From a virus: a stretch of DNA of 64,000 nucleotides. Below the pieces are notes generated by a model. The model searched no databases and had not been told where the DNA came from. It saw nothing but the letters and a program-made list of their open reading frames with translations. Location of the stretch: IMG/VR virus record IMGVR_UViG_3300009159_000035; one strand, written 5' to 3'. The position numbers were made by a program, and so were the translations under genes. Below are positions 1,060-61,076 of the stretch, in pieces (the stretch's first letter is position 1; every line of letters starts with the position of its first letter).

Positions 1060-1443
1060 ATGAAAACAATAATTAAAGGATTTGGACAATTCATAAACGA
1101 AAACCACATGGACGATATGAATGATATGAATGATATGGGTCGTGAAGCAGTTGCAACTGCCTATTCAGGTAACAGTAACGAAGAAATGCTTAGACTTACA
1201 TTTAGTAATAAGCCAGGTAAAGAAATACTAATCAGCCTTGACTCATTAGCTAATGTATTAGATGCAGCAGTACTTGACTCTAATTCAGATGAAGATCAAG
1301 AGGCAATCAATCAGGCACTATGGACTAGAGCACAAGAAATTGCAAAACGTGCAGGCTGTTCTGTATTAATTGACAATGAATCTGACGAAGAAATTGACCT
1401 AACCGGTAGAGCTTCTAATCCAGGCTATTCTGATTTAAGGTAA
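1060..1443 (+). CDS. putative internal head protein (CTS-like leader)
   Basis: MKTIIKGFGQFINE; acidic; late motif upstream. Confidence 0.65.
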   Translation: MKTIIKGFGQFINENHMDDMNDMNDMGREAVATAYSGNSNEEMLRLTFSNKPGKEILISLDSLANVLDAAVLDSNSDEDQEAINQALWTRAQEIAKRAGCSVLIDNESDEEIDLTGRASNPGYSDLR

Positions 1444-1464
1444 TTACCAACACATAACTCTAAT

Positions 1465-1493
1465 AGGACCCTTAGCAATATCGGTCCTTTTTT
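1465..1493 (+). terminator. intrinsic terminator
   Basis: AGGACC..GGTCCT plus T run. Confidence 0.6.
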
Positions 1494-1522
1494 AGGGTAT
1501 ACTAACCTGAATAAATAACCGT

Positions 1523-2029
1523 ATGAAAGCACTAGTTAAAGGGTTTAGGCAGTTTATAAACGAGGAGCTTGACTCATTAGAGTCAGACCGTATTGAAATT
1601 GACCTAATCGCAGAATTGCCTGACCTATTTAGTCGAGCTGCACGAATTGGCAATGAAACTTCAGATGATGAGTATACTCATGATATTACAACTACCCTAA
1701 CCGCAATTAAATACAATACACCTGATGATATTGACCAGCTCAGAGAGTTGGGCCTGGCTCAAGGTGCATGGGAAACTGATCCAGACTGGATAGAGGCACT
1801 GGATGTACTAAATTACATAACTGATAAATTCATAGACGCTTCATTCTATACTGAGCCGGTCAAGATTAAAATTGTTTTTAAAGATCAAGAAAACGAATAT
1901 GGCGGCTATAGTGCACACGGTGGAGGTATGGACCGTACGGCATTTTGTGGAGCTAAAGAATTTAGCAAAGCTGGGGTGCTTGATACGTTTACCAGTTTAT
2001 TACGCTATACTGATATATTTGAATATTAA
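1523..2029 (+). CDS. putative internal head protein (CTS-like leader, LxELGL motif)
   Basis: MKALVKGFRQFINEE; DIDQLRELGL. Confidence 0.65.
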   Translation: MKALVKGFRQFINEELDSLESDRIEIDLIAELPDLFSRAARIGNETSDDEYTHDITTTLTAIKYNTPDDIDQLRELGLAQGAWETDPDWIEALDVLNYITDKFIDASFYTEPVKIKIVFKDQENEYGGYSAHGGGMDRTAFCGAKEFSKAGVLDTFTSLLRYTDIFEY

Positions 2030-2049
2030 TACCAAAATAAAAACAGAGA

Positions 2050-3666
2050 ATGACAAAGTATATTAAACTATTTGAAAATTTTATACCCGAAGCACGCGAA
2101 TCTGATTTAGAAGGTTTGGCTGATCTGGGACTTGGGCCAGCTCAGTTTGAATGGGAGGTAGAATACGATGAGGACATGCAAAATATTGAAAAGTCTGATA
2201 GGCAAGAAATTTATGATTATGAATCCCCAACCGGTGCTCACATTACTAGGGTTAAAGGTGTAATTGAAGCATTTCAAACCCAATTAGACATTTACTTTAG
2301 CAATGAAGATAAAATTCAAATGCATGTTAAATTCTCACAACACCCTGGAGACAAGGGTCGAGCCGCTTTTCAAGTTAAGCATAATAGTAAATGGCACTCA
2401 GTATTTAACCCAATAGTTAGTTATGATAAAGCTGAAGAATGGTTACAGAAATGTGAAGACTCAGGCTCAAGCGTTCAGCCAATATTCTATTATTACGAAG
2501 AGTTTTTAAAAGCCTTATCTAATGATGAAGATTACCAAATTTATTGGACAATGGAAAATCAAGGTTTAAATATTACAACCAATGAAATGATGAAGCCTGA
2601 CTATACTCGACTACAGTTATTCATTAGAGCTTTACGTGATTTACCAATTGACTCAAATATAATACTTAAAATACGCCAACTAATTAATAATCTGATAATT
2701 GATCCTTATCATAATAGGATTTCTATCTTAACTGAAGTAGACCGTGGCTTTTCGGATATTCCAGGTATTAGTGAATTGGTTGCAAAATTTAGCAGACCAC
2801 TTACTGAAGCTCGTGAGATTGAGCCACATGAAGAAGCCGAGTTAGCCAATATGAAAGACACAGTTAATGACATCAATGGCTTAATTGAATTGGGGTTAAT
2901 TGATGATTCAGGTTATCGAAAAGAGATGGTTGCTATCAGTAAAGCCTTTAATAAATTTGTTAAGGGTTTAAACTTAGATCTTAAAGATCAAGCTGATCTT
3001 GACTTGTTAAAATCGCTTGGCGAAAAAGCAGGCCAAGATTCATTAATGGGATTAAGTTTAGCTGGTGGAAAAGCACTCGCCACAAAAGGTTTACATCTGG
3101 TTTCAAGTCCAACTCAATTGGCTAATGGCTCATTGATATTTTCAGTTGATCCAAATTACAGACGTAGCGATGGCTGGGGTATTGGATTTTTTCCTGGCCC
3201 AAAGGTTATTCGGCGTATGACCCCAACACAAATTAATCTTGGGGTTTGGTCAAGAACTTTAGGCTCAATGGATATTGCAATAAAACATTTTAGAGACACC
3301 ACTAGTAATCTGGATTTTTATAATAAAGCCATGTTATGGGCAGCTGACAATATTGATTTTGACCATGCGGTAATGTATCCTGAAAAGCATGTGTGGAAAT
3401 ATTATAAAAAGAAAAAAGAAACCCGGGATAAACGAACTGAATCAGATGACTTACGTGTACAAGCAGACGCAATTATGTCAGAAGTTAAGTTTAGCCCGTG
3501 GCAATCACCAATCGGCCGGCTTGCTGCACTTGAAAAATATATTGAAGCTTGGAAATTAAGACTTAAAGCTGCTCAGCTTGATAATAACGAAAAAGCCATA
3601 ATTGATGCAAAGGACCAAATTGCACATATGGAACTTGATATTGCTAACTCAAAGAACCGCAATTAA
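2050..3666 (+). CDS. putative internal head protein, multi-module
   Basis: MTKYIKLFENFIPEAR; internal LTEAR; two Lx(D/E)LGL motifs. Confidence 0.65.
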   Translation: MTKYIKLFENFIPEARESDLEGLADLGLGPAQFEWEVEYDEDMQNIEKSDRQEIYDYESPTGAHITRVKGVIEAFQTQLDIYFSNEDKIQMHVKFSQHPGDKGRAAFQVKHNSKWHSVFNPIVSYDKAEEWLQKCEDSGSSVQPIFYYYEEFLKALSNDEDYQIYWTMENQGLNITTNEMMKPDYTRLQLFIRALRDLPIDSNIILKIRQLINNLIIDPYHNRISILTEVDRGFSDIPGISELVAKFSRPLTEAREIEPHEEAELANMKDTVNDINGLIELGLIDDSGYRKEMVAISKAFNKFVKGLNLDLKDQADLDLLKSLGEKAGQDSLMGLSLAGGKALATKGLHLVSSPTQLANGSLIFSVDPNYRRSDGWGIGFFPGPKVIRRMTPTQINLGVWSRTLGSMDIAIKHFRDTTSNLDFYNKAMLWAADNIDFDHAVMYPEKHVWKYYKKKKETRDKRTESDDLRVQADAIMSEVKFSPWQSPIGRLAALEKYIEAWKLRLKAAQLDNNEKAIIDAKDQIAHMELDIANSKNRN

Positions 3667-3676
3667 TTTTATATGT

Positions 3677-3702
3677 AAGGCTGGAAATTCCAGCCTTTTT
3701 TT
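3677..3702 (+). terminator. intrinsic terminator
   Basis: AAGGCTGGA-AAT-TCCAGCCTT plus T run. Confidence 0.8.
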
Positions 3703-3733
3703 ATGTGATGATAGTACATTAATTTAAAAACAA

Positions 3734-3952
3734 ATGGAAGCACAAACCAAACCCACTAAAACTCAAATTGCAATTGATCAAGCCAGATTAATAATGGAAA
3801 GCTTTGATGCAGGTGGAGCGCTAACCGTTGGTTATGACCAGTCTACTTATACCTTAACCTCTAATCAAATGTCAACCATTGCTGGAGCTCTGTATTTGGC
3901 AGATTGCGAAATTCAAGACATATTAGACAGACTATCAGTATTAGAGGATTAA
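3734..3952 (+). CDS. hypothetical protein
   Basis: 72-aa ORF. Confidence 0.6.
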   Translation: MEAQTKPTKTQIAIDQARLIMESFDAGGALTVGYDQSTYTLTSNQMSTIAGALYLADCEIQDILDRLSVLED

Positions 3953-3961
3953 TAAACAGAT

Positions 3962-4384
3962 ATGATTGCTGAAAACCGAAAGGCCAAATACGAATATGAA
4001 TTTATTGAGAGGTGGACCGCGGGTATTTCGCTAGTCGGGTCAGAGGTCAAGTCAGTTAAAGCCGGGCACCTTGATTTTACTGGGTCTTGGTGCGAATTAC
4101 GAAATGGAGAATGCTGGATTAGGGAACTGTATATTAAAGAATCAGCTACTGCTTTTAGCCACCAGGATAAACGAGAGAGGCGCTTACTCTTAACTAAAAA
4201 GGAACTAAAGAAGCTGGATAAGCTGATGGACAAGGGCCTCACGATCGTTCCAGTATCAATTCAGGTTAATCCAAAAGGTTTAATTAAGGTATCGATTGCC
4301 TTAGCCAAAGGTAAAAAACTTTGGGACAAGCGCCAAGTTATAAAAAATAGAGATGCTGACCGAGCTTTATTAGTTTCAGGTTAA
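3962..4384 (+). CDS. smpB: SsrA-binding protein SmpB
   Basis: IAENRKAKYEY, AGISLVGSEVKS, RRLLL, GLTIVP, AKGKKLWDKR. Confidence 0.95.
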   Translation: MIAENRKAKYEYEFIERWTAGISLVGSEVKSVKAGHLDFTGSWCELRNGECWIRELYIKESATAFSHQDKRERRLLLTKKELKKLDKLMDKGLTIVPVSIQVNPKGLIKVSIALAKGKKLWDKRQVIKNRDADRALLVSG

Positions 4385-4412
4385 ATAAATAAACCTTGAA
4401 ATAATAACAATT

Positions 4413-5261
4413 ATGAAATATATTAAACTATTTGAATCATTTATTGCAGAAGTTGCAGGTTATAAACTGGTTCCTGGCTCGTCAAAAGTTAAAGGTTGGG
4501 TTGATCAGGGTGGTGGTAGTTGGATGGTTAATTGCACATTAGGTAGAATTTATGTTGCAACAGTTGACACCCCAAATACTAGTAATGTTTCAGTATTTCT
4601 ACCAGCAAATGATCCTGCAATTATAACACAACTTAAAACAGCAGTGAAGGACCTTATTGTAACTGAACCGCCAATTGGCAAACCAAAGAGTATTACACTT
4701 GGTGGTACTACATGGAATTATGAAAAGATGCTTACGTGTATGCTAACTGATGTAACAACAGGCGATCCAATTCTATTATCAATTGCCAATGTATTAAATA
4801 AAGTGCAAACTGCAAATCCGGATCAACCAGCAGAGGCTAATAAACCGGTTACTAACTATACTGGTCTTAAACGTTCAACTACTGTTGATCCTAAAGTTAA
4901 AGAACTACAAACTGCAATTATTAATAGTGGAAATGCTAAGGCTGCTCTAGCACTCACTAAAGTGGGAGGAGCTACTGGAATTTTTGGTATTGAAACATCA
5001 TCGGCCATTGTACTTTTAATAGGTGCTCCTATTGACACAGTTATTGAAGAAATTACACCCGAGATTAATAAAAAACTTGCAGATAAACTATCAGCTGGTA
5101 AAAAATATGCAGCTGATTTCTTTGGTACAGTAGTTGATCCAACTGATCCAACCAAAAGAATTAACATTGCAGATGTAATTTCAAAGCAAAAGACGGAGGA
5201 TGATGCAAAGGCTCTTGCACCGGCTGGTATTACAACAACAACTACAACTAAAAAACCATAA
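4413..5261 (+). CDS. CTS-tagged protein with peptidoglycan-binding-like segment
   Basis: MKYIKLFESFIAE; VKELQTAI..GATGIFGIETSSAI resembles PG_binding_1. Confidence 0.55.
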   Translation: MKYIKLFESFIAEVAGYKLVPGSSKVKGWVDQGGGSWMVNCTLGRIYVATVDTPNTSNVSVFLPANDPAIITQLKTAVKDLIVTEPPIGKPKSITLGGTTWNYEKMLTCMLTDVTTGDPILLSIANVLNKVQTANPDQPAEANKPVTNYTGLKRSTTVDPKVKELQTAIINSGNAKAALALTKVGGATGIFGIETSSAIVLLIGAPIDTVIEEITPEINKKLADKLSAGKKYAADFFGTVVDPTDPTKRINIADVISKQKTEDDAKALAPAGITTTTTTKKP

Positions 5262-5325
5262 GTATTTAATTAAATTAGCCAAATCCTTTAATTAATTGGT
5301 ATTATTTAATTTAATAAACAATGTT

Positions 5326-5523
5326 ATGGAACCTACTTTAAATAAGCGTGAAATTTTTGCAGTTGCTGCAATGCAAGGAATGCTAATGGACCACACCTAT
5401 TCAGTTGAAATTATTCCTGAATTAGCAGTAAAAATTGCAGATAACCTAATTAATCAATTAGATCAAGCCAAGTCAGATACTGATCTTGAATCATTAACCA
5501 ACACATCTCACAATGATGAATAG
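5326..5523 (+). CDS. hypothetical phage protein
   Basis: KREIFAVAAMQGML motif; ATG at 5326 preferred. Confidence 0.6.
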   Translation: MEPTLNKREIFAVAAMQGMLMDHTYSVEIIPELAVKIADNLINQLDQAKSDTDLESLTNTSHNDE

Positions 5524-5719
5524 CCAAATAGTACATGGAATTCTAGAATATTTAATAATTGGAATTGGTTGGGCAATCTTAGTTGAATACTTAGATTCTC
5601 GACAGTCCTCTTCAAAACTAAAAAAGAGTATTACAACTCGGCTTATACTTGTATTGCTTTGGCCAGCTACTGTATTTATAGCAATAGTTAATGTATTAAG
5701 TAATCTAATAAAAAAGTAA
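5513..5719 (+). CDS. small membrane protein
   Basis: two hydrophobic segments. Confidence 0.6.
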   Translation: MMNSQIVHGILEYLIIGIGWAILVEYLDSRQSSSKLKKSITTRLILVLLWPATVFIAIVNVLSNLIKK

Positions 5720-5720
5720 T

Positions 5721-5930
5721 ATGTCAAAATCAATATTAGTACACGATAGATTTAGAACTAATGAATTAAGTGTACAACCAGGCGGATCAACTGTAACTGT
5801 TGAATATGCAGATGGCTCTAATCGATCCTATAATAAAGTTAAAAATCCAAGAGCTTATATTAATTCAATAATTAAAGATGAGACTATCTCTTCAGTAAAA
5901 GTAGACGGTCAACCTTATTGGGCCAGATAA
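5721..5930 (+). CDS. hypothetical protein
   Basis: 69-aa ORF, tightly packed with neighbours. Confidence 0.65.
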   Translation: MSKSILVHDRFRTNELSVQPGGSTVTVEYADGSNRSYNKVKNPRAYINSIIKDETISSVKVDGQPYWAR

Positions 5931-5952
5931 ATAAACTAAAGTTTTTTAATAA

Positions 5953-6549
5953 ATGCAATATCAAATTTTACAAGAGATTTATAAACATAAACCTGACTCA
6001 ATTCATACAGTTGTTAAGTCAGAATTTTTTACAAAATATGATTCATATGACTATGTATGGTCAGGCAATTGTTTTGAATGGTACTATGCACTAGGTAAAG
6101 CACTCCAGCCCAAATCATTTTTAGAAATTGGAGTAAGATTTGGCTTTAGCTTCCTACCAACCATGCTTGGTTCCGATTCATTGGACTATGCATTAGGTTG
6201 GGACCTTGAAACCTATGGTAATAACCAAATTGCACATACTAATATTAAAGAATATTATCCAGGTTCAGCAAACTGGGAAATTAAGCATATTGATTCTCAA
6301 CTAGAGACTGAGTTACCCCAATTCTTTGACCTGATCTCAATTGACGGGTGTCATGATTATGATTGCAAAGTTCACGATCTTAAATTATGTATTGGCAAAA
6401 CCAATTACGTAATATTAGATGACTATGATTATCATAAAGACGTAAGAGACTCAACTGATTTCTTTTTAAAGGAATACGCTGAGCACATTGAGTGGAATGC
6501 ATATATTCCAACATTCAGAGGAAGCCAATTAATTAAATTTAAAGTGTGA
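5953..6549 (+). CDS. class I SAM-dependent methyltransferase (Methyltransf_24-like)
   Basis: FLEIGVRFGFS, FDLISIDGCH, ILDDY. Confidence 0.85.
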   Translation: MQYQILQEIYKHKPDSIHTVVKSEFFTKYDSYDYVWSGNCFEWYYALGKALQPKSFLEIGVRFGFSFLPTMLGSDSLDYALGWDLETYGNNQIAHTNIKEYYPGSANWEIKHIDSQLETELPQFFDLISIDGCHDYDCKVHDLKLCIGKTNYVILDDYDYHKDVRDSTDFFLKEYAEHIEWNAYIPTFRGSQLIKFKV

Positions 6550-7220
6550 GATATTTAGATTTTTTTGAAGATGTATATTATATCAATTTAGATTATCGAA
6601 CAGACCGCCGTCTTTTATTTGAAGATCGGTCACAAGTAGTTGGTATAGAAGCAGTTAGATTTTCAGCAGCTCAACCGGCTGAAGAAGATTGCCCATTACT
6701 ACCTGGATCAGTTGGTGAAACTCGCCGTCGTTTTAAAGTTGGGTGTACAATGTCTCATCAAGGTGTTGTACAATTAGCAAAGTCTAGAGGGTTGGCTAAT
6801 GTATTAATATTTGAAGATGATTGTATATTTGAACCAGAGTTCAAGGAAGAGGCACAAAAATGTGTTGACGAACTTCGGCAAATTGATTGGGATATTCTTT
6901 ATTTTGGCGGAGAGGTTAACAATTATTGTAAATCAATATCTAAAAATTTAGTTACAGTAAATAATGGTGGCGTTTATTGCTGTCATGCATATGCAGTTAA
7001 CGCAAAGTTCTATGATAAGTTTTTAGCAATAAGCCCGCATCACACTGATATTATTGACATTTACTTATTAAATTATCCAGCAAACCAGCGTAACTACATC
7101 TTAAGTCGAAAACTATTAGCTTTGCAGGATCCAATTTTCTCAGATTTAAAAAATGGTCCTAGTGAATTGGCTAATGGCTATATGCTTAATAGCTGGAAAA
7201 AATTTATATCTAATGAATAA
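6546..7220 (+). CDS. glycosyltransferase family 25
   Basis: YYINLDYRTDR, GCTMSH, LIFEDD, HAYAVN. Confidence 0.85.
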   Translation: MRYLDFFEDVYYINLDYRTDRRLLFEDRSQVVGIEAVRFSAAQPAEEDCPLLPGSVGETRRRFKVGCTMSHQGVVQLAKSRGLANVLIFEDDCIFEPEFKEEAQKCVDELRQIDWDILYFGGEVNNYCKSISKNLVTVNNGGVYCCHAYAVNAKFYDKFLAISPHHTDIIDIYLLNYPANQRNYILSRKLLALQDPIFSDLKNGPSELANGYMLNSWKKFISNE

Positions 7221-8019
7221 ACTAAGTTTTGTTTGCACAACCTTTCGTCGATATCGTTGTGTTGAACGTATAATTGAACAATATCTACAACAGGATTATC
7301 GAAATTCAGAATTAATTATTTTTAATACTGACAAAGAAAATCCATTTAATTTGGACCCAAGTCTTGACTATTCAAATATTATTGTAGTTAACAATGAAAT
7401 TGACTATGAGACTCAACTGCCTTACACTAATCGTGGAGCTATTTGCAGAGATGCAGTGACTCATGCAACTGGAGACTATTTTATGCTAGCAGATGACGAT
7501 GACATTTATTTGCCATGGCATTTTAGACAAGCAGTTGAAGGAATTTTAGCAAATGGTAAAGACTCATGGAAACCTGAACAAAGCTTCTTTGCAACTTCAC
7601 ATAAGCTTGAAATGGTTCGCAATACACTGGAGGCATCAGTAATTGTTAAGATGAGCCGAATCAGAGAAATTGGATTTAGAACTGATGCAACTGGGTATGA
7701 AGGTTTAAGTTGGTATACTAAGCTCAGAGATGAGGGCCAATTGGACGAGCATAACCCTGAATACGTTCCATCATACTGCTTTAATTGGTCTGATCCAGCT
7801 GAACTTGCTGGGCATAAGCAGAGCGGAGATATTAATAACCCTAATAATTTTGATAATCATAAGCACAGCTCAAATGATATTTCAAATAAGCCTTTAAATC
7901 GCTGCGGCCTTGCAATTATAACCGAATGTTATTCAAAGTATTATAATTACCTACAATTAAACTCAAAAAGGTTTAATCCTATTATCTGGGATAAATATGT
8001 AAAACAATATATCAGTTAA
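7213..8019 (+). CDS. glycosyltransferase family 2
   Basis: LSFVCTT..QDY..ELII; GDYFMLADDDDIYLP; start moved to MNKLSF. Confidence 0.85.
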   Translation: MNKLSFVCTTFRRYRCVERIIEQYLQQDYRNSELIIFNTDKENPFNLDPSLDYSNIIVVNNEIDYETQLPYTNRGAICRDAVTHATGDYFMLADDDDIYLPWHFRQAVEGILANGKDSWKPEQSFFATSHKLEMVRNTLEASVIVKMSRIREIGFRTDATGYEGLSWYTKLRDEGQLDEHNPEYVPSYCFNWSDPAELAGHKQSGDINNPNNFDNHKHSSNDISNKPLNRCGLAIITECYSKYYNYLQLNSKRFNPIIWDKYVKQYIS

Positions 8020-8043
8020 ATAGTCGACTGATAAATAACATAG

Positions 8044-9294: not shown

Positions 9295-9319
9295 GATTAG
9301 ACTCATTTAAAAAGACACT

Positions 9320-52911: not shown

Positions 52912-53087
52912 GCACCGAAACAATTGTTACTAAGCAAGATGCAAAATACAGCAGAAATGCTTATCTTAAAATAGTAGATGATAAAGTTGTATTTGACTGT
53001 TCAGATACTGAGTATGGGCCAATCGAATTTGACTTAGCCTTATTAGAAGAAAAAATTAAACAACACAAATCACAATATGGAAAATAA
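52908..53087 (+). CDS. small hypothetical protein (not in ORF track)
   Basis: ATGA-coupled 59-aa ORF MSTETIVTK. Confidence 0.55.
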   Translation: MSTETIVTKQDAKYSRNAYLKIVDDKVVFDCSDTEYGPIEFDLALLEEKIKQHKSQYGK

Positions 53088-53316
53088 TGAACTTGGCTTA
53101 ATTGAACAAATTGCAAAAGAAGGTGCAATTCAAACAGTTCAAGCATTAGCATCAGCTCAACAAATGGGCATGGTTACTTCGCAAGAAGACTTAACTCGAC
53201 TACTTCAATCTGGCATGGAAGTTGTAATTGAAGAGTATATTCAAAGAATCGAAAATCAATCTAAAATTATTCTAAATGAAGCTGGAAGTATTCGAAAAGA
53301 TAGTAACTCAAATTAA
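53077..53316 (+). CDS. hypothetical protein
   Basis: 79 aa helical. Confidence 0.6.
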   Translation: MENNELGLIEQIAKEGAIQTVQALASAQQMGMVTSQEDLTRLLQSGMEVVIEEYIQRIENQSKIILNEAGSIRKDSNSN

Positions 53317-53647
53317 GGACCAACAAGAAAAAAGTAGAACTCTTTATCGATTAGGAGTTGACTTGATGGACTATGAGGAGTCTTATAGTGCTACTATTAC
53401 TTTATTACTTAGAGCGTATTATGGAAAGGAGGCAGAGGATTGGATTTCTTGGTTTATTTATGAGAGGGATGATTTATCTGAAGAGCCAAATCAAGCTTGG
53501 GATAAAGACGGTACTCCAATTTGTTATGATATTCCAAGTCTTTGGAAATGTGTTGAGGAAATGAGATGCTCAACTGATTTTGTTGAATACGGTCTTGAAA
53601 AAACTAATCTTGACCTATTTGAATCTATTTTTGGCAGGCCTCATTAA
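53276..53647 (+). CDS. hypothetical phage protein
   Basis: DWISWFIYE. Confidence 0.65.
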   Translation: MKLEVFEKIVTQIKDQQEKSRTLYRLGVDLMDYEESYSATITLLLRAYYGKEAEDWISWFIYERDDLSEEPNQAWDKDGTPICYDIPSLWKCVEEMRCSTDFVEYGLEKTNLDLFESIFGRPH

Positions 53648-53666
53648 TATTTAGTATAATAGTCAT

Positions 53667-54125
53667 ATGATACAATTAAATCAAAATAAACAGGTTGATA
53701 CGGTTAGTCGAATGCATAGATTTAAACGGCTATCTCAATTATTGGCACTTCGCATAACTAAAGCACTTGATCCAACTACGATTAAATCAGCTAACTTTGA
53801 TAATAGCGAACGTGAAGCTTCTAGTGTTTTTAAAAAAATGATTAAATTATCAACTAGTGAATTATTAATTAGTCCATTACTTAATAAACAATATGTTAAA
53901 AATGAAGATAATCGTATTTTAATAATAATGGATCAAACTGAACTTACGGTTATTAATCACGTATTTGGTTATAATATTAACCTTTCACCAAAAACTTACA
54001 AAACTTTGTATAATGCTTTTATTAGAGAAGTTGAAATCAGGCGAAATGAAATGGAAGCTAGTTTTAGAAATAATATCAAACATTCATTAAAAACCTTAAT
54101 TACTAAAATCGATGAACAAGTTTAA
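53667..54125 (+). CDS. hypothetical protein
   Basis: 152 aa; promoter motif upstream. Confidence 0.65.
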   Translation: MIQLNQNKQVDTVSRMHRFKRLSQLLALRITKALDPTTIKSANFDNSEREASSVFKKMIKLSTSELLISPLLNKQYVKNEDNRILIIMDQTELTVINHVFGYNINLSPKTYKTLYNAFIREVEIRRNEMEASFRNNIKHSLKTLITKIDEQV

Positions 54126-54393
54126 TAAGTTATTCATAATTGGTGCAAGTATTATTATAATAGTAACGGCACTAGTACTTACAGGTACAGTATTTGCAAT
54201 ATTTAAACCTCAATCTAATAAAGTTATATTAGGAGTAGACCAGATCCAGCATGATACACTTAGAATTCAAACTAAGATTATTATTCATGATACGCTAAGG
54301 ATCCCAGTTTCATGTAAAAAACAGCATTGTGAAGTACCTGTAACTAACCCAAGTTCAAGTACTCCAGATACAATTAAAAAACAAATAGATTAA
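54112..54393 (+). CDS. membrane-anchored protein
   Basis: TM; repeated HDTLRI. Confidence 0.6.
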   Translation: MNKFNKLFIIGASIIIIVTALVLTGTVFAIFKPQSNKVILGVDQIQHDTLRIQTKIIIHDTLRIPVSCKKQHCEVPVTNPSSSTPDTIKKQID

Positions 54394-54395
54394 TT

Positions 54396-55028
54396 ATGGA
54401 AGTAGGATTTGCAGATACATTCTTTGATAGTTTCAAAAGAATGATTAATAGAGAACGTTGGTATTGGAAAACCTGGGATTTTCTTAGATATGATTTACCT
54501 AGAGGTTTAAAAAATATGCGGATGTTTCATAAAGCTATCTGGAATTATACATGGTGGAGTGGTCAACATGCAGTATTACCATTACTACAAGTTGCGCTTG
54601 ATAATATAGCAATCCGAATTGAAAGAGACGGAATTGAAGAAGAAACCAGCTCAGGTAAAAAGGTTAAAGCTATGAAACGTGCATCAGAACTTATGCAACA
54701 CTTTATTGCTGATGATTTTATCCAAATGGCTGAGGCTGAATTAGGCGAAATCATACATCATCCTTGGGAATTTGAAGAAGTTCCAGATAAACCTGGATAT
54801 TCTCAATTAGTAGATCACAATACGGCAGAAGAAAGTGAGCACAATAGTAAAGTATTTGCAAGATCCCGTGAAATTGAAGAACAGGAATGGGCCGAATTAT
54901 GGCACTTAATAAAAGGTCAAGATTATTCAAAATTTGAAAGGACTTTAGAAGATAGTGATCATCAAACGGTATCTGATACTTGGCAAAAACAATTTGACGG
55001 CAGCGGATTACGAGGCTGGTGGGACTAA
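54396..55028 (+). CDS. hypothetical phage protein
   Basis: C-terminal GLRGWWD. Confidence 0.7.
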   Translation: MEVGFADTFFDSFKRMINRERWYWKTWDFLRYDLPRGLKNMRMFHKAIWNYTWWSGQHAVLPLLQVALDNIAIRIERDGIEEETSSGKKVKAMKRASELMQHFIADDFIQMAEAELGEIIHHPWEFEEVPDKPGYSQLVDHNTAEESEHNSKVFARSREIEEQEWAELWHLIKGQDYSKFERTLEDSDHQTVSDTWQKQFDGSGLRGWWD

Positions 55029-55051
55029 TAAAATAACTACAATACATATAC

Positions 55052-57031
55052 ATGGCAAAACAGAATAGCAAAACCGGCAAAACACCAATGCTTGATTCAT
55101 TTGGTAAAGATCTTACTCAACTTGCCTTAGAGGGTAAATTAGATCCAGTAGTTGGCAGAGAGAAAGAAATACGTAGATGCAGTCAAATATTGGCTAGGCG
55201 AAAGAAAAATAATCCTCTCTTAATTGGAGAACCTGGAGTAGGTAAAACTGCAATTGTTGAAGGTCTTGCTACCATGATTATTGATAAAACCTGTCCAAGA
55301 GTTCTATTTGATAAAAAAATAGTAACACTTGAATTAGCAAATTTGGTAGCAGGTACCAAATATAGAGGTCAGTTTGAAGAGCGCATGGAACAAATAATAG
55401 AAGAGGTTCAGGTAAATCCAAACGTTATTCTATTTATTGATGAAATTCATACCTTAATTGGAGCAGGTTCAGCAAGTGGATCACTAGATGCAGCAAATAT
55501 CCTAAAGCCAGCTTTGAGTCGTGGAGAAATTCAGTGTATTGGTGCAACAACAATAGATGAGTTTAGAGGATCAATTGAAAAAGATGGTGCTCTTAGCCGC
55601 CGATTTCAACAGGTTATAGTAAATCCATCTACACTAGAACAGTCACGTCAGATCATTGAAAATATCCGATCTAAATACGAAGATCATCATTCAGTTAAGT
55701 ATACTGATGAGGCCTTAGATGCATGTGTTGCATATAGTGACCGATATTTACAGGACAGATTTTTACCAGATAAAGCAATTGACTTAATGGACGAAGCTGG
55801 GGCAGCAGTCCATATCAATGGAGTAGTTGTGCCAGACGCAATTAAGAAATTAGAAGAGAAATTTGTTGAGGTAAGTGCTAAAAAACAAAAAGCAGTTGAG
55901 GCACAACAATACGAAGCGGCAGCAAAACTTAGAGATGATGCTCTTAAAGTAATGAAAGATATTGATGATGAAAAGATTCAATGGGAAGAGTCATTAAAAA
56001 TTAATAGGTTAACTGTATCAGAAGAAGATATTGCAAATGTTGTTGCAATTATGACAGGCATACCAGTTACCCGACTAAAGGGCTCTGAACTTGAAAGATT
56101 AGCAACAATGGCTAAATGGTTAAAGGAAAGAGTTATTGGGCAGTCTGAAGCAGTTTCTAAATTAACTAAAGCAATTCAGCGCTCAAGAGCAGGTCTTAAA
56201 GCTAAAAATCGCCCAATTGGTACATTCATGTTTCTAGGTCCAACTGGAGTTGGTAAAACTGAATTAGCTAAACAGTTAGCAAAATTTCTGTTTGATACAG
56301 AAGACTCCCTAATCAGAATTGATATGACTGAATTTGGAGAAAAATTTACAGCATCAAAATTAATAGGAGCTCCTCCAGGCTATGTTGGATATGAAGAAGG
56401 CGGGCAGTTAACCGAAAAAGTAAAACGTAAACCTTATTCAGTTATCCTACTAGATGAAGTTGAGAAAGCCCATCCAGATATTTTCCATACCTTATTACAA
56501 GTGTTAGACGAAGGCCATATGACTGATGGTCTTGGCCGAAAAATAGATTTTAAGAATACTGTAATTATTATGACTTCAAATTTGGGAGTTAAGGAATTAC
56601 AAGATTTCGGTGGAGGTATTGGATTCTCATCGTCAACTCCATTTGAACAACAAAAAGAATTGGCGTCAGGTATTTTAAGAAAAGCGGTTAGTAAACAGTT
56701 TGCACCAGAATTTATTAATCGACTAGATGATATTATTATATTTGAGTCCCTAAAGAAAGAGGATGTTGCTCAAATAATCGAAGTTGAATTGTTAGATCTT
56801 TATTCAAGAGTAAAAGAAAATGGTTATACTGTTGAATTAACAAAGTCCGCAAAAGAATTCTTAATTGAAGCAGGTTATGATCATAAATTTGGAGCTCGTC
56901 CATTAAAAAGAGCTATTCAAACTCATGTTGAAGATCTTATAGCTGAAGCATATATTGACGGTAAAATTAAAGATGGAGATCACTTAGTGATTAACCATAA
57001 GGCTAAAGATACAAAGTTAACTATTAAATAA
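55052..57031 (+). CDS. clpC: ClpC-like Hsp100 ATPase lacking the N-terminal Clp repeat domain
   Basis: Two NBDs (GEPGVGKT, GPTGVGKT); UVR-type linker; GIGF ClpP-docking loop; begins at KTPMLDSFG. Confidence 0.9.
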   Translation: MAKQNSKTGKTPMLDSFGKDLTQLALEGKLDPVVGREKEIRRCSQILARRKKNNPLLIGEPGVGKTAIVEGLATMIIDKTCPRVLFDKKIVTLELANLVAGTKYRGQFEERMEQIIEEVQVNPNVILFIDEIHTLIGAGSASGSLDAANILKPALSRGEIQCIGATTIDEFRGSIEKDGALSRRFQQVIVNPSTLEQSRQIIENIRSKYEDHHSVKYTDEALDACVAYSDRYLQDRFLPDKAIDLMDEAGAAVHINGVVVPDAIKKLEEKFVEVSAKKQKAVEAQQYEAAAKLRDDALKVMKDIDDEKIQWEESLKINRLTVSEEDIANVVAIMTGIPVTRLKGSELERLATMAKWLKERVIGQSEAVSKLTKAIQRSRAGLKAKNRPIGTFMFLGPTGVGKTELAKQLAKFLFDTEDSLIRIDMTEFGEKFTASKLIGAPPGYVGYEEGGQLTEKVKRKPYSVILLDEVEKAHPDIFHTLLQVLDEGHMTDGLGRKIDFKNTVIIMTSNLGVKELQDFGGGIGFSSSTPFEQQKELASGILRKAVSKQFAPEFINRLDDIIIFESLKKEDVAQIIEVELLDLYSRVKENGYTVELTKSAKEFLIEAGYDHKFGARPLKRAIQTHVEDLIAEAYIDGKIKDGDHLVINHKAKDTKLTIK

Positions 57032-57867
57032 TGAAGATACTTGTAACTGGCGATCAGGGATTTATCGCAAAAAATCTAATAGGTAAATTAGATAAAAACT
57101 TGACGGTTTATGGAATAGACGTTAATGATTTTATGGTGGTTGACGATTGGCAAAGCCAATTAATTGATATTGTTGCAAGCTTATCGCCTGACGTAATATT
57201 TCATGTTGGAGCATGTTCTGATACGCTAGAACAGAATGTAAATTACATGATGAATCTTAATTATGAAGCCACTAAAATATTATCTGAATATTGTTATATG
57301 GCAAATTGTAAAATGATCTATTCATCATCTGCTGCAAACTATGGGGTTAATGGAAAGAACCCATCTAACCTATATGGCTGGAGCAAATATGCAGCTGAAG
57401 ATATAGTAAAAGCAAAGGGCGGAATTGCACTTAGATATTTTAATGTGTATGGACCTGGTGAAGAACATAAAGGCAAAATGGCATCAGTTGCATATCAATC
57501 ATGGTTAAAAAGTCAAGCTGAAGAAAGGGTAATATTGTTTCCAAAGAAACCAACTAGAGATTTTGTTTATGTTGATGATATTGTTTCTGCAAACTTACAT
57601 GCACTTGAGAATTACGAGCAATTTGCAGGCAATCATTTTGATGTAGGCAGCGGAGAGTCAAGATCTTTTGAAGAAGTTATGCAATTGATGCAAATACCAT
57701 TTGAATACACTGAGGACTTAATAATTCCTAGCGGATATCAATTTTTTACAATAAGTAACAAAAATGAATGGTTACCTGGCTGGACACCTTTATGGACAAT
57801 TGATACTGGAGTTCCAGCATATTTAGAATACTTAAAAAAATCAAAAGAAAATGGGTCATCAAATTAA
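57031..57867 (+). CDS. ADP-heptose 6-epimerase-like SDR (HldD/RfaD-like)
   Basis: TGDQGFI, FHVGACSDT, YSSSAA, YGWSK, NVYGPGEEHKGKMAS, RDFVYV. Confidence 0.85.
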   Translation: MKILVTGDQGFIAKNLIGKLDKNLTVYGIDVNDFMVVDDWQSQLIDIVASLSPDVIFHVGACSDTLEQNVNYMMNLNYEATKILSEYCYMANCKMIYSSSAANYGVNGKNPSNLYGWSKYAAEDIVKAKGGIALRYFNVYGPGEEHKGKMASVAYQSWLKSQAEERVILFPKKPTRDFVYVDDIVSANLHALENYEQFAGNHFDVGSGESRSFEEVMQLMQIPFEYTEDLIIPSGYQFFTISNKNEWLPGWTPLWTIDTGVPAYLEYLKKSKENGSSN

Positions 57868-58231
57868 ACCAACCGTTTGTAAAGGTTGTGAAGTTCCAAA
57901 AGGTTGGGGCAAAGAAATTATAATTGAAAATAACGATAAGTACTGTGGCAAGATTCTACAATTTAACGAGGGTTGTAAATTCTCAATGCACTATCATTTG
58001 CTTAAGGATGAAACTTGGTATGTTAACTCTGGCATATTCATATACAGATGGATTGATACTGAAACGGCAGAAGTTCATGAGCAGCAACTTACGGCAGGTG
58101 ATGTTGTTCGGCAGTTACCCGGACAACCTCATCAACTTGAAGCAGTGTTTGAAGGAGAAATATTTGAAGTTTCAACCACTCATATGGATGAAGATTCGTA
58201 TCGAGTGTGGAAAGGTAATAGCCAAAAATAA
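57851..58231 (+). CDS. cupin (sugar isomerase-like)
   Basis: VPKGWG..SMHYH..KDET..PHQL..EVST. Confidence 0.8.
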   Translation: MGHQIKPTVCKGCEVPKGWGKEIIIENNDKYCGKILQFNEGCKFSMHYHLLKDETWYVNSGIFIYRWIDTETAEVHEQQLTAGDVVRQLPGQPHQLEAVFEGEIFEVSTTHMDEDSYRVWKGNSQK

Positions 58232-58240
58232 TTTAATAGC

Positions 58241-59023
58241 ATGAAAAAAATTCTTGTAATAGGCGAAGCCTGTATTGATATATTTGAATACGGCAAATGT
58301 ACTCGACTTAATCCAGAAGCACCAACTCCAATCTTTCAGTCAAACCATATTGAAACAAATGGTGGAATGGCAAGTAATGTATATGAAAATATCAGAAGCA
58401 TTTCTGGAAATTGGGAAATTGATGTTGATTTTATAGGTCAAGCAAATGGAAAAATTACCAAACACCGATTTGTTGATATTAATTCAAACTATATTCTATT
58501 ACGGGTAGATAATGATGGTCCAGTTGAACCACTTACAATTGGTTCACTTGATTCGGAAATTCTATATCAAATTACATCAGCCGATATTGTGGTAGTTTCT
58601 GACTATAATAAAGGCTTCCTAACTGAAGCCATTTTGGAAAGGATTGCACTACATTCCAAATTAAGTTTCATTGATACTAAAAAACCTCTTGGCTGGTGGG
58701 CTCATGATTTTAACTTTATTAAAATTAATAAAAAAGAATTTGAAAACCCAGCACATGACAAAGACTTTATTGACAGTAGTCTAGATAAGCTAATTATCAC
58801 GCTTGGAGCAGAAGGCGCCAAATGGAACGGAACTCAAATATATCCACTTAACCCAACTGAAGTAAAGGATGTATCTGGTGCTGGTGATAGCTTTATTGCT
58901 GGTCTAGTGGTTGAATACCTAAAAAGTAATGATATTATTCAAGCTATTCAATTTGCTAATGTCTGTGCAGGTATAGCAGTTTCACAAAAGGGCGTAGTTT
59001 CAGTAGAGTGTCCAGATAAATAA
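58241..59023 (+). CDS. PfkB-family heptose-phosphate kinase (HldE kinase domain-like)
   Basis: RLNPEAPTP, GGMASNV, SDYNKG, DVSGAGD. Confidence 0.85.
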   Translation: MKKILVIGEACIDIFEYGKCTRLNPEAPTPIFQSNHIETNGGMASNVYENIRSISGNWEIDVDFIGQANGKITKHRFVDINSNYILLRVDNDGPVEPLTIGSLDSEILYQITSADIVVVSDYNKGFLTEAILERIALHSKLSFIDTKKPLGWWAHDFNFIKINKKEFENPAHDKDFIDSSLDKLIITLGAEGAKWNGTQIYPLNPTEVKDVSGAGDSFIAGLVVEYLKSNDIIQAIQFANVCAGIAVSQKGVVSVECPDK

Positions 59024-59042
59024 TTAAAAATATCCATATACA

Positions 59043-59924
59043 ATGGGAAAATTTGGTAAAAATAAACTACCTAAGTTCATGAATACAGCTGACAATAGAA
59101 TGGGTTCAAACCCTCACATCCAAGAGGACAACCAGGATGATGAAATGCAACCAGTAATAGTATCTATGGCTGGCCACGGAGATGACCATGCAATGATTGT
59201 AATTAAAACTAAAAGCGGCGAAGAATTAGAGCTTAGATTTGACTATGACGGTAATGGTATGCTAACGGCAACTCACAATGATCATGAGTATTCTATTCCA
59301 GTAGAAATTGAAGTAGTATCTGACGAAGATCACGAAGAGGAAGAGGTGCACATGAGCCCAAGCGGTAGAATGACAAATATGAGTCCAGCGGACGATGATT
59401 ACGAAATTAATTACGGAAGAGCTGAAGAAGTTGATGAAGCCGCTAAAAAACTTAGTGCTAAACAGAAAAAGTTTCTAGATAAAGACGGAAATGGCGAATT
59501 AAACAAAAAAGATTTTCTATTACTAAATAAAAATAAGAAAAAGGATACTGAAGGTAAAGTTGCTGAAACTTTTGAAAGTTTTGTAAATGAATGCTGGACT
59601 CCTATTGAAGAAAGTTACAATCTAGCAATGTCAGAAGAGGCAAAGCGCGCAATTAAAGCATTATGTGAAGAAATGTTAATTCAAGAAGCTCAAAGATGTG
59701 ATGAAGATGCTGACCCAATGCATACTTACGAAAATTACTTAAACGAATGCGGTTCATATATGACAGAGTGTATGATGGAATCAGCAGCTAGTCTACCTAT
59801 AACCGAATCTACTTCATATAGTTGTGATACTTGTGGAGAACGTGCAGAACATGAAGAAATTGACGAGAATCCTAATATGAAATGCTCTAATTGTGGACAT
59901 CGTAATTGGAGTCCAGAACAATAA
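59043..59924 (+). CDS. acidic prohead core/scaffold-like protein with EF-hand-like loop and Zn ribbon
   Basis: LDKDGNGELNKKDF; many (I/L/V/M)xE sites including FESFVNE; CDTC..CSNC. Confidence 0.55.
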   Translation: MGKFGKNKLPKFMNTADNRMGSNPHIQEDNQDDEMQPVIVSMAGHGDDHAMIVIKTKSGEELELRFDYDGNGMLTATHNDHEYSIPVEIEVVSDEDHEEEEVHMSPSGRMTNMSPADDDYEINYGRAEEVDEAAKKLSAKQKKFLDKDGNGELNKKDFLLLNKNKKKDTEGKVAETFESFVNECWTPIEESYNLAMSEEAKRAIKALCEEMLIQEAQRCDEDADPMHTYENYLNECGSYMTECMMESAASLPITESTSYSCDTCGERAEHEEIDENPNMKCSNCGHRNWSPEQ

Positions 59925-59944
59925 TCTTAATTAGTTAAATTAAT

Positions 59945-59973
59945 AAAAAAGCTCGAGTAATCGGGCTTTTTTT
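59945..59973 (+). terminator. intrinsic terminator
   Basis: AAAAAAGCTCGA-GTAA-TCGGGCTTTTTT. Confidence 0.8.
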
Positions 59974-60003
59974 ATTTAGTCTGAACCTAGAATAAATAAC
60001 CAT

Positions 60004-60426
60004 ATGAAATATTTAAAGATATATGAACATTTTATAGAAGAAACAACACTGCCGGGTGATGATATTCCTTCTGATGACTATGCAAAATCTGGAGCAGAAA
60101 CCTATTGGCAGCTAGAAGATGGAACAATCGTACAGATTAATCAAATTATGAAGTTTTTAGATGATGAAAACATTCCAGTCGTTGAAATACCAACTGCAAA
60201 ATTAAAACATCTATTAATAGACGTAGAAAGAAATCCATCCAGAGTTGAGGCCGCTAACCTTGATTTTCCAATTATAGTATCTACGTATAAAAATGAATAT
60301 TATAGTATTTTAGATGGTCAACATAGATTAGTAAAATCTGTAAAAAACAAGATTAAAAAAATTAAATGTCGAGTTTTAGATTTAGAAAATTGCCCTGAAG
60401 AATTCAAAAAAGTATTTATTAGATAA
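60004..60426 (+). CDS. ParB/Srx-like domain protein with CTS-like leader
   Basis: MKYLKIYEHFIEE; ANLDFPIIV..ILDGQHRL. Confidence 0.75.
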   Translation: MKYLKIYEHFIEETTLPGDDIPSDDYAKSGAETYWQLEDGTIVQINQIMKFLDDENIPVVEIPTAKLKHLLIDVERNPSRVEAANLDFPIIVSTYKNEYYSILDGQHRLVKSVKNKIKKIKCRVLDLENCPEEFKKVFIR

Positions 60427-60434
60427 ATAACCAT

Positions 60435-60701
60435 ATGGATAGTTCAAAAATGTCATCTGGTGAAGTTACTGTTCCTGCAAGTTCGTTTAATCAACAAACT
60501 GACCGGAATATTCAACCGAGCCTAACTGGAATGAGCATTGGTGGAATACCAACTCACTGGTTATCAAGTCAACCTATTTCCAGACGTGATATGACAGCTA
60601 ATACAACGCCACTTGGCTCAAATCCAAGAAGTTATAAGGTTATTAGATTTGAAGAATTCCATTCTGGTAAATACCAAGGTGATCCAGAAATTGATAAATA
60701 A
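60435..60701 (+). CDS. late hypothetical protein
   Basis: late motif; KVIRFEEF near the C-terminus. Confidence 0.55.
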   Translation: MDSSKMSSGEVTVPASSFNQQTDRNIQPSLTGMSIGGIPTHWLSSQPISRRDMTANTTPLGSNPRSYKVIRFEEFHSGKYQGDPEIDK

Positions 60702-60716
60702 TAAAAAACAATTACT

Positions 60717-61076
60717 ATGAGTAACAAAATTTTAAATTTCAAAGACTTTAAAACTGGTGGAAAACTTAGTGACCCAAAAACTGCAACTAGTGTAAAAGCA
60801 GCAGATCCAGTTAAAAAGGAAAAGTCAATAGACCAAGTAAAAAGAGCTGACTTAACTCACCCTAAGATTACTTTACCAGATTACACAAAAGTATCTAAAA
60901 ACCCTATTCAAGAGAGCTCTGCTGATACTCAAGCACAGATTGATGTACTTAATCAGACAAAAGCACTTAGGGCTAAGGTGGCAGCTGCTGCAACGGAAGA
61001 AGAAAAGATTAAGTTATTGGCTCAAATCAAGCAAATTGAACTACAGGCTGAACAAAAGGCAGCTAAGGCTGTATAA
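60717..61076 (+). CDS. late hypothetical protein (CTS-like leader)
   Basis: NKILNFKDF; PIQES. Confidence 0.55.
   Translation: MSNKILNFKDFKTGGKLSDPKTATSVKAADPVKKEKSIDQVKRADLTHPKITLPDYTKVSKNPIQESSADTQAQIDVLNQTKALRAKVAAAATEEEKIKLLAQIKQIELQAEQKAAKAV

Follow-up and report, generated by a model that had tools for sequence, protein, structure and literature searches.

The window analysed here is a 64,000-nucleotide stretch of DNA from a large, uncultured T4-like phage in which the products of many otherwise unrelated genes begin with the same short peptide (Table 1). The first-pass annotation had proposed that about 17 unrelated genes share such a tag, and all 21 starts that it listed were translated. 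Thirteen of the proteins open with M-K-x-[I/L]-K followed by [F/Y]-x-x-[F/W]-[I/V/L]-x-E, a leader of approximately 13 residues. With the strict pattern defined as [FYW]xx[FW][IVL]xE inside the first 14 residues, 13 N-terminal copies were observed as compared to 0.2 expected when each protein was shuffled (maximum of 2 in 500 shuffles), and internally the pattern occurred only twice in 20,034 residues. A looser half-motif was found at 17 N-termini, a count that takes in one doubtful minus-strand ORF, versus 0.9 expected; shuffled sequences and internal windows of real proteins gave the same expectation. Within the strict tags the first aromatic (F/Y), the second aromatic (F/W), the aliphatic residue (I/V/L) and the Glu are each present in 13 of 13. 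When the first 16 residues were removed and the remainders compared by all-against-all BLASTP, no pair scored below E = 0.08. The proposal therefore stands, as 13 strict, two near and two half copies on proteins that are unrelated beyond residue 16.

Table 1. Tagged genes, other copies of the peptide and the portal gene in the window
Coordinates	Strand	Leader or match	Product	Upstream context
1060..1443	+	Strict	127 aa, acidic orphan	ATAAATA 31 nt upstream
1523..2029	+	Strict	168 aa, acidic orphan	Promoter motif 12 nt upstream
2050..3666	+	Strict, Pro at P2	538 aa orphan	21 nt behind 1523
4413..5261	+	Strict, ends F-I-A-E like T4	282 aa	Promoter motif 28 nt upstream
8044..9204	+	Strict	386 aa, Pol-beta-type nucleotidyltransferase fold and C-terminal beta domain	
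22030..22584	+	Strict, GTG start	184 aa, acidic orphan	Promoter motif 27 nt upstream
22661..23209	+	Strict	182 aa, coiled-coil-like	Promoter motif 29 nt upstream
24901..25401	+	Strict	166 aa orphan	Promoter motif 30 nt upstream
25419..26333	+	Strict	304 aa orphan	17 nt behind 24901
40424..40819	+	Alternative leader, L-N-W-x-x-Y-H, I-F-E-A at 23-26		Promoter motif 30 nt upstream
40806..41621	+	Strict, Trp as second aromatic	271 aa orphan	In string behind 40424
41633..42205	+	Near match, intact targeting half, Asp for Glu	190 aa, acidic orphan	
42207..42821	+	Strict, L-A-D-L-G-L past tag	204 aa, acidic	
44519..45496	+	Near match, TTG start, one additional residue ahead of Glu	325 aa orphan	Promoter motif 28 nt upstream
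45540..47102	+	Strict	MoxR-type AAA+ ATPase	
47104..47859	+	Alternative leader, L-D-W-x-x-Y-H, I-L-E-A at 22-25	DUF2201_N metallopeptidase-like	
49963..50247	+	Half tag only, without aliphatic-x-Glu	94 aa, acidic	
59043..59924	+	Strict internal copy, residues 177-183 (nt 59571-59591)	293 aa, very acidic	
60004..60426	+	Strict	140 aa, ParB/sulfiredoxin fold, invariant DGxHR motif	
60717..61076	+	Half tag only (N-terminal half)	119 aa, basic	
63111..63950	-	PF07230, E = 8.9e-40	T4-type portal (gp20 family), C-terminal part	

The codons for the conserved residues differ synonymously from leader to leader, and identical runs of 18-21 nt are confined to three pairs (40806/41633, 2050/4413, and 24901/25419, which have 21 nt in common), so that conservation acts mainly at the level of the peptide. 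The L-A-D-L-G-L stretch of the 42207 protein, whose real start lies 1 nt after the 41633 stop, also stands immediately past the tag of the 2050 protein. Net charge is between -11 and -35 in 10 of the 21 listed proteins, and the largest tagged proteins have 520 and 538 residues. A peptidoglycan-binding-like stretch in the 4413 protein is a weak lead only.

Four further places had been put forward as weaker or internal copies, with mixed results. The one at 59043 is a true internal copy, situated where the acidic half of the protein gives way to a Cys-rich half, and no in-frame start codon was found near it. Those at 40424 and 47104 proved to be a separate pair with a different leader, L-[D/N]-W-x-x-Y-H and then [I/L]-x-E-A at residues 22-26. 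The remaining candidate, at 60435..60701 (+), was unconvincing. A VWA-like gene (47864-49015) comes after 47104.

We then considered how the tagged genes are transcribed. The T4-late-promoter-like motif ATAAATAA occurs 26 times on the plus strand (1029..60701) and five times on the minus strand, nearly always 12-31 nt ahead of a start codon. It lies directly upstream of 10 of the 15 strict or near-match genes, and each of the other five (2050, 25419, 40806, 41633 and 42207) begins no more than 21 nt after a gene that is itself tagged or preceded by the motif. All 15 thus agree with the earlier description of tagged genes as lying behind ATAAATA or downstream in such an operon, and a Fisher test on the association with the promoter motif gave p = 9e-5. 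Within the window the tag is missing from all genes for replication, sugar metabolism, lysis and tail fibres, and it is absent from approximately 60 untagged genes scanned against Pfam, including topoisomerase, helicase, RNA ligase, glycosyltransferases, Clp, lysin and tail-fibre-like genes. (With one exception, the scan took in every ORF of at least 195 aa; the topoisomerase II large subunit (9707-11542) was recognised by tblastn instead.) Judged at sequence level, the tag is confined to late transcription units, and other late genes have the same promoter motif without the peptide.

Homologues and structural models indicate how the peptide is attached to its proteins. The 8044 protein belongs to a large phage family (2165 matches), and 107 of 113 full-length homologues have aromatic-[ILVM]-x-E within the first 18 residues, ending at residues 12-14 in 102 of those 107. 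The peptide pattern persists in orthologues at 47-70% identity, with the residues themselves changed. The 8044 orthologue of Maribacter phage Molly has that phage's own leader, ending L-V-E. In AlphaFold models the tag is detached from the folded domains of both the 8044 and the 60004 proteins (residues 1-20 and 1-28, respectively, are of low confidence) and forms only a short helix at residues 7-13. The MoxR protein encoded at 45540 bears its tag on an N-terminal extension of approximately 135 aa that its homologues lack; the MoxR homologue in the complete genome of a related phage, LR756502, and the PHROG profile have neither tag nor extension. Of 78 homologues in the 60004 family, 73 retain the targeting half, but only some 16 of those 73 also have the [I/V/L]-x-E half, so cleavage would not be universal. 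This suggests that in this family cleavage may be dispensable, or that the conserved half may have another role.

The peptide resembles the capsid targeting sequence (CTS) of phage T4, MKTYQEFIAE (PMC8442874), which directs proteins to the prohead core and is then cut off by gp21 (PMC8442874; PMC9026906), as the first-pass annotation had correctly stated. Amber-suppressor work assigned CTS residues 4 and 7 to targeting and residues 8 and 10 to processing, and Asp at position 10 blocked processing but not targeting (PMC9026906). The internal proteins of T-even phages are diverse and have only the CTS in common (PMC3012670). The four fixed positions of the tag correspond to Y4, F7, I8 and E10 of the CTS, and the same pattern fits residues 59-65 of T4 gp23, at which the 65-residue propeptide removed by gp21 ends. 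In both phages a peptide of roughly 10-14 residues, with aromatics three apart and then I/L/V-x-Glu, stands at the N-terminus of otherwise unrelated proteins that are expressed late (in the present phage, as predicted from promoter motifs), and both have a T4-type head module. The two systems differ in that T4 has three internal proteins while here at least 15 genes are tagged in 64 kb, and in the additional [I/L]-K element that stands ahead of the first aromatic here. The cargo here is mostly acidic and includes nucleotidyltransferase, ParB/Srx and AAA+ folds, whereas the T4 internal proteins are small, basic and DNA-associated. Since charges reach -35 and sizes 538 aa, the tagged proteins would not be members of the IPI-III type, even though the address system would be the same. 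Unlike in the T4 CTS, the cleavage half appears optional in some families of tagged proteins.

The head module itself is only partly in view. The portal gene (559 aa in full) extends past the end of the window, and no Peptidase_S77 protease was found on the 66.5-kb record, estimated to cover 25% of the genome. Such a protease is encoded in the related genomes LR756502, Lak-B5 and G003, the last being the closest relative examined. In LR756502, G003 and 80 IMG/VR loci it is fused to 9-17 tandem NLDKNISYSEYLAE-like repeats; no such fusion was found among the cultivated phages of the collection searched. Each repeat is 14 residues long, a spacing that is modal in 56 of 150 cluster representatives, and ends in aromatic-x-x-aromatic-[I/L]-A-E, the same motif as the tag. 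Phe and, at P2, mostly Asn are found in the tags, as compared to Tyr and Ala in the scaffold repeats; no lineage-specific co-variation of tag and scaffold was found, and the resemblance as read from these residues is one of pattern only. As with T4 gp21 and gp22, the protease domain is a Peptidase_S77 and the scaffold is rich in I/L-x-Glu sites; T4 gp22 has 16 of them in 269 residues, and gp21 breaks it down at many such places. However, T4 has two proteins where the relatives have protease and scaffold in one polypeptide, and the relatives' scaffold is a regular 14-residue array in which every repeat ends CTS-like, while gp22 contains no strict aromatic-x-x-aromatic copy. LR756502 also has 27 N-terminal tag copies among 965 ORFs, as compared to about 4 estimated from the internal match rate, and its tagged proteins include an RNA ligase and a polyphosphate kinase 2 (PPK2).

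With moderate confidence, we interpret the peptide as a T4-type CTS that is used far more widely than in T4. The phage probably packs many more kinds of protein into its capsid than T4 does, enzymes included, and from these sequences we infer packaging, scaffold binding, cleavage and ejection of the tagged proteins. Late in infection, many unrelated proteins would be made with the M-K-x-[I/L]-K-x-[F/Y]-x-x-[F/W]-[I/V/L]-x-E start. The N-terminal half of this peptide, with its two aromatics three apart on a short amphipathic helix, would bind the helical scaffold core of the prohead, formed by the tail of the head protease with its tandem 14-residue repeats ending aromatic-x-x-aromatic-[I/L]-A-E. 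A T4-type (S77) protease would then cut after the Glu, digesting the scaffold and freeing cargo in the head wherever the site is intact, and the freed cargo would be delivered together with the DNA. The earlier notion of a portable packaging tag is favoured by the T4 key positions, the T4-type portal, the protease-scaffold repeats of relatives, the restriction to late genes, the retention of the peptide in orthologues and its detachment in the AlphaFold models; it is weakened by the scarcity of the cleavage half in the 60004 family and by the listing itself, in which 4 of 21 copies are weak or differ in kind. Counting against capsid loading are also the acidic and sometimes large cargo, unlike the small basic internal proteins of T4, and the tagged RNA ligase and PPK2 of LR756502, enzymes that are usually regarded as cytoplasmic.

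Alternatively, the peptide could be a docking or sorting tag for a place other than the prohead interior, whether elsewhere in the virion, in a multi-enzyme complex, or in an assembly or compartment that the phage builds inside the infected cell; the Glu half would then be incidental or serve later release. The far better retention of the N-terminal half than of the cleavage half in the 60004 family fits such a destination, as does the tagging of normally cytoplasmic enzymes, to which the MoxR ATPase of the window can be added. However, the match to the T4 CTS spans targeting and processing positions alike, the scaffold tail of the relatives' head protease consists of the same motif, and the tail-fibre-like and lysis proteins, although late, are untagged; we regard another destination as unlikely. 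Proteolytic control without packaging, through a propeptide that keeps late enzymes inactive until it is clipped by a phage protease or through a degradation signal for the phage ClpP and Clp ATPase, appears more improbable still. The motif does close with a protease-type site, and genes for ClpP (29104-29775), SmpB and a two-ring Clp ATPase (55052-57031) lie in the window, but Clp genes are also found in LR756502, so their presence or absence gives no discrimination. T4 has the same motif without a Clp system, orphans and structural-looking coiled-coil proteins are tagged as well as enzymes, and the Clp recognition signals known to us are unlike the tag.

Could the conservation reside in the nucleic acid instead, as a translation-start context of late messages in a host that does not use Shine-Dalgarno sequences, or as a recombination cassette carrying promoter and leader from gene to gene? 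The regions upstream indeed lack Shine-Dalgarno-like sequences, several leaders have an extended promoter string in common, and three pairs have identical runs of 18-21 nt. Most pairs, however, share no DNA run past the promoter and vary synonymously in their codons, late genes without the peptide have the same promoter motif, and the orthologues at 47-70% identity keep the pattern with other residues, which makes this explanation very unlikely. Recognition of the leader by a modifying enzyme of the radical-SAM type is hardly credible, as no radical-SAM, SPASM or maturase-type domain was detected by Pfam among approximately 60 window proteins and the tag has no Cys, Ser or Thr at a fixed position.

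On its sequence features we class the system, under the CTS interpretation, as the known T4 capsid-loading system in a much-expanded form. In the giant phages phiKZ, 201phi2-1 and SPN3US, propeptides of head, inner-body and ejection proteins are cut after Glu by gp21-like proteases (PMC9026906, PMC5694885, PMC10052503). These phages are comparable in that a diverged T4-type protease processes many of the proteins inside the head after a Glu and the host receives a large load of internal protein, as the genes lead us to infer here; they differ in that the phage described here reuses one short peptide. Phage P1 packages its Dar antirestriction proteins into the head and injects them to counter host defence, a loading into the capsid and injection that is predicted from sequence for the present phage. 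To our knowledge, Dar loading follows a hierarchy of partner proteins without a common clipped N-terminal tag, and the propeptides of the giant phages are long and dissimilar, no short shared N-terminal address peptide having been described for them.

A more specific and decidedly tentative possibility is that the tag is in effect a detached single unit of the repeat that builds the scaffold. Cargo would then co-assemble with an array of the same aromatic-x-x-aromatic-[I/L]-x-Glu helices tethered to the protease, and a single protease would both dissolve the scaffold and free the cargo, making the peptide a general packaging code of large Bacteroidota phages that can be read from sequence. If so, such phages would deliver dozens of ready-made enzymes together with their DNA, among them nucleotidyltransferases, ParB/Srx-type proteins, AAA+ ATPases, RNA ligase and polyphosphate kinase.

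Translation of all 21 starts named in the first-pass annotation, which had proposed a capsid-targeting-like peptide at the head of about 17 unrelated genes, confirmed this N-terminal tag and yielded 13 strict copies, two near matches and two half copies (genes are named by the first nucleotide of their ORF). Anchored on the Glu, the tag columns read M-K, a variable residue, I/L (9/13), K (9/13), a variable residue, F/Y (13/13), two variable residues, F/W (13/13), I/V/L (13/13), a residue that is mostly N (8/13), and E (13/13). In 13 ORFs the pattern [FYW]xx[FW][IVL]xE fell within the N-terminal 14 residues, against 0.2 expected from per-protein shuffling, and the 20,034 residues encoded by the 106 called ORFs contained only two more strict copies. 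A looser half-motif was present at 17 N-termini, compared with 0.9 in shuffles and 0.95 in internal windows of real proteins, and base composition was therefore ruled out as its cause. A paralogous family was also rejected, since the 21 listed proteins showed no mutual similarity once their first 16 residues were removed (all E > 0.08), as was a secretion signal, the tag being charged and amphipathic without a hydrophobic core. The features with their coordinates are collected in the table.

Features of the window and of G003, the closest reachable relative (an IMG/VR contig of 29,556 bases)
Sequence	Gene or coordinates	Strand	Feature	Observation
Window	1-323		G+C-rich stretch	Many short GGCTGG/CTAGCC-like words; outside the matching IMG/VR record
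Window	324-64000		IMG/VR virus record	Same sequence as the record (66,573 bases, judged about 25% complete)
Window	1523		L-x-E-L-G-L	Inside the protein; similar to the stretch in 2050
Window	2050-3666		D-L-x-x-L-A-D-L-G-L right after tag (residues ~16-30)	Otherwise unrelated to 42207; L-x-E-L-G-L again further along
Window	3962-4384	+	SmpB
Window	4413		Possible peptidoglycan-binding-like stretch	Weak lead, ESM Atlas
Window	8044		Pol-beta-type nucleotidyltransferase fold plus beta domain	Best matches CD-NTases and aminoglycoside nucleotidyltransferases, weak scores
Window	22661		Coiled-coil-like
Window	29104-29775	+	ClpP
Window	40424-40819		Other, longer leader L-[D/N]-W-x-x-Y-H (~residues 4-11)	[I/L]-x-E-A at 22-26; unrelated to 47104
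Window	41633		Near match to tag	Asp in place of Glu
Window	42207-42821		D-L-x-x-L-A-D-L-G-L right after tag (residues ~16-30)	Otherwise unrelated to 2050
Window	42885-43484		DUF2589, first of tandem pair	Untagged, amid the densest tagged-gene cluster; late-promoter-like motif 25 nt upstream
Window	43594-44076		DUF2589, second of tandem pair	Untagged, same cluster
Window	44519		Near match to tag
Window	45540		MoxR AAA+ ATPase	Next genes DUF2201 metallopeptidase-like, then VWA-like
Window	47104-47859		Longer leader as in 40424	[I/L]-x-E-A at 22-26
Window	49963		First half of tag only
Window	55052-57031	+	Two-ring ClpA/ClpB-type ATPase
Window	59043-59924		Strict internal tag copy, residues 177-183	Between a very acidic half (EF-hand-like stretch) and a Cys-rich, zinc-ribbon-like half
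Window	60004		ParB/sulfiredoxin fold	All top matches in ParB/sulfiredoxin superfamily; DGxHR invariant in 78 homologues
Window	60717		First half of tag only
G003	4498-6816		773-aa protein	Ends in at least 4 basic repeats containing K-F-[I/M]-[E/N]-D, ~30-40 residues apart
G003	8539-10128		Portal-like	Adjacent to the next; similar N-termini
G003	10132-11772		Portal-like

No family was found for the remaining tagged proteins; PDB sequence searches returned no significant match for 60004, 4413 or 8044, and the ESM Atlas gave no usable hit for 2050. The stretch common to 2050 and 42207 may act as an additional sorting or binding element, and the leader of 40424 and 47104 may represent another class of leader, although with just two proteins carrying it the likeness could be due to chance. 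No in-frame ATG, GTG or TTG was found near the internal copy in 59043; the position of this copy between two unlike halves would be in line with a bipartite protein that is cleaved inside the head.

Aromatic-[ILVM]-x-E is retained within the first 18 residues by 107 of the 113 full-length 8044 homologues (47-97% identical); for 102 of the 107 its end lies at residues 12-14, with a linker of 7-8 residues before the first invariant block of the domain. The 8044 tag segment is modelled by AlphaFold at low confidence (pLDDT 42-61) as a short helix separate from the confident nucleotidyltransferase-type fold, and residues 1-28 of 60004 are likewise modelled as detached. Within the 60004 family the first half of the tag is kept in 73 of 78 homologues but aliphatic-x-Glu in only about 16, most reading E-Q-P in its place. 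In the MoxR ATPase 45540, the tag sits on an extension of ~135 residues that is missing from the PHROG profile and from the homologue in LR756502, a huge uncultured phage. Of the 965 ORFs of LR756502, 27 carry a strict N-terminal copy; they are scattered genome-wide, and their products include polyphosphate kinase 2, an RNA ligase of the T4 Rnl1 type and proteins that are methyltransferase-like or DHH-like. Homologues in LR756502 exist for only 26 of 106 window genes and, among the tagged ones, only for 8044 and the ATPase core of 45540; the putative cargo set therefore turns over fast, as do the T-even internal proteins. Maribacter phage Molly_1 (MT732451, 1-34344) carries at least six unrelated proteins, including an 8044 orthologue, with a common leader of their own, M-x-x-x-[L/I]-K-[S/T]-L-[V/I]-E-[S/T], unlike the window tag; this cultivated flavobacterial phage, with its distinct address peptide, is open to bench testing. 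In the Synechococcus phage S-CRM01, the 8044 homologue and two neighbours (g125-g127) start with short peptides ending in aliphatic-x-Glu or aromatic-x-Glu, and leaders resembling the T4 capsid targeting sequence (CTS) may be common in T4-like cyanophages too.

The tag is also associated with the late-promoter-like motif ATAAATAA, of which there are 26 copies on the + strand and 5 on the - strand, nearly all of them 12-31 nt upstream of a start codon. This motif lies directly upstream of 10 of the 15 strict or near-match genes, and the other five follow the preceding gene of the same gene string by at most 21 nt (Fisher test, p = 9e-5). Untagged genes behind the motif include a GH19 lysin, a GIY-YIG-like gene (read by eye; no Pfam family), the first DUF2589 gene (42885) and 26432, which heads the PA14 and LamG fibre-like genes 27039 and 27924. 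In keeping with the first-pass proposal, the motif proved not to be equally common in early or metabolic genes, since within the window it was not found on topoisomerase, helicase, RNA ligase, phosphoesterases, glycosyltransferases, sugar enzymes, ClpP, the Clp ATPase or SmpB.

The window probably belongs to a jumbo phage with a genome near 270 kb, because relatives of 8044 in the protein database (92-97% identity, one labelled uncultured Caudovirales phage) lie on contigs of up to 270 kb and the window's own copy of 60004 is also recorded on a 153,955-base contig. Given that contig, the window, with its first 323 bases outside the matching record, seems to derive from a longer assembly of this phage. 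The window has a G+C content of 32-38% and five tRNA genes, and its topoisomerase II large subunit shares 47-55% identity with the counterparts in LR745206, LR756502 and LR756504, uncultured huge phages of 634-642 kb. The gene at the end of the window encodes a T4-type portal (PF07230, E = 8.9e-40), 34% identical to portals of the LR756502 group. A/T-rich stretches without any Shine-Dalgarno-like sequence precede the start codons, a pattern that fits the Bacteroidota hosts proposed for relatives.

A PF03420 profile search found no prohead protease of the S77 family, to which T4 gp21 belongs, on the 66.5-kb record, and the protease is present in LR756502, Lak-B5 and S-CRM01. The LR756502 ORF continues past its protease domain with a tandem array of 14-residue units, at least 11 in number, all with the ending Y-x-E-Y-[I/L]-A-E, an architecture also seen in 80 IMG/VR loci and in no cultivated phage of the collection. 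When the IMG/VR protease L087 was searched against representatives of 50%-identity clusters, 56 of 150 showed the modal 14-residue spacing. G003 encodes a protease with 15 repeats and an 8044 orthologue (52% identical) that starts with the tag; all viral-contig relatives reached for 8044 were at or below this identity. Upstream of both its portal-like genes lies a 119-aa ORF whose start resembles, by eye, the T4 late sigma factor gp55, and no match to it was found on the window contig. The last seven residues of the scaffold repeat and of the tag follow one common pattern, the repeats carrying Tyr and Ala where tags carry Phe and Asn. No co-variation between tag and repeat was found across lineages, because the repeat hardly varies between them while tags do.

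The T4 CTS is MKTYQEFIAE (PMC8442874), and amber-suppressor work assigned targeting mainly to residues 4 and 7 and processing to residues 8 and 10, with Asp at position 10 blocking processing but not targeting (PMC9026906). These four residues correspond exactly to the four invariant tag positions. Since Asp there stops processing only, 41633 would, on T4 precedent, be loaded yet unclipped at that point. Residues 59-65 of T4 gp23, the end of the 65-residue propeptide removed by gp21, also fit the tag pattern. T-even internal proteins are diverse, with the CTS as their only common part (PMC3012670). Whereas those of T4 are basic, 10 of the 21 listed window proteins are strongly acidic.

From these sequence comparisons we consider it reasonably probable that the tag belongs to an expanded version of the T4 capsid-targeting system, with its N-terminal half as the address and aliphatic-x-Glu as an optional release site; packaging, cleavage and ejection are all putative. 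The tag might instead arise from an mRNA or DNA cassette effect, a less likely reading: identical 18-21-nt leader runs are common to only three gene pairs and codons for the conserved residues vary synonymously, so that selection acts on the tag peptide and the leader has to some extent been copied locally. Proteolytic control or a Clp degradation signal is also less likely. Taken together, SmpB, ClpP and the Clp ATPase resemble a set for protein quality control or degradation carried by the phage, and both Clp genes have LR756502 homologues (50% and 57% identity). Delivery of the tagged proteins to another destination and service of the tag as a maturase leader are both regarded as less likely than capsid targeting.

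Among the huge-phage matches listed, no description of such tags was found and none used the term 'capsid targeting'. Should the tag act as it does in T4, the injected proteins of a large uncultured phage could become readable from its genome, among them many candidate host-takeover or counter-defence proteins that arrive ahead of any phage gene expression. Protein delivery could likewise profit from a short, portable tag able to load enzymes into a capsid of very large size. The link between tag and scaffold repeat offers a concrete, testable idea of how the head core might be located by the targeting sequence of T4.
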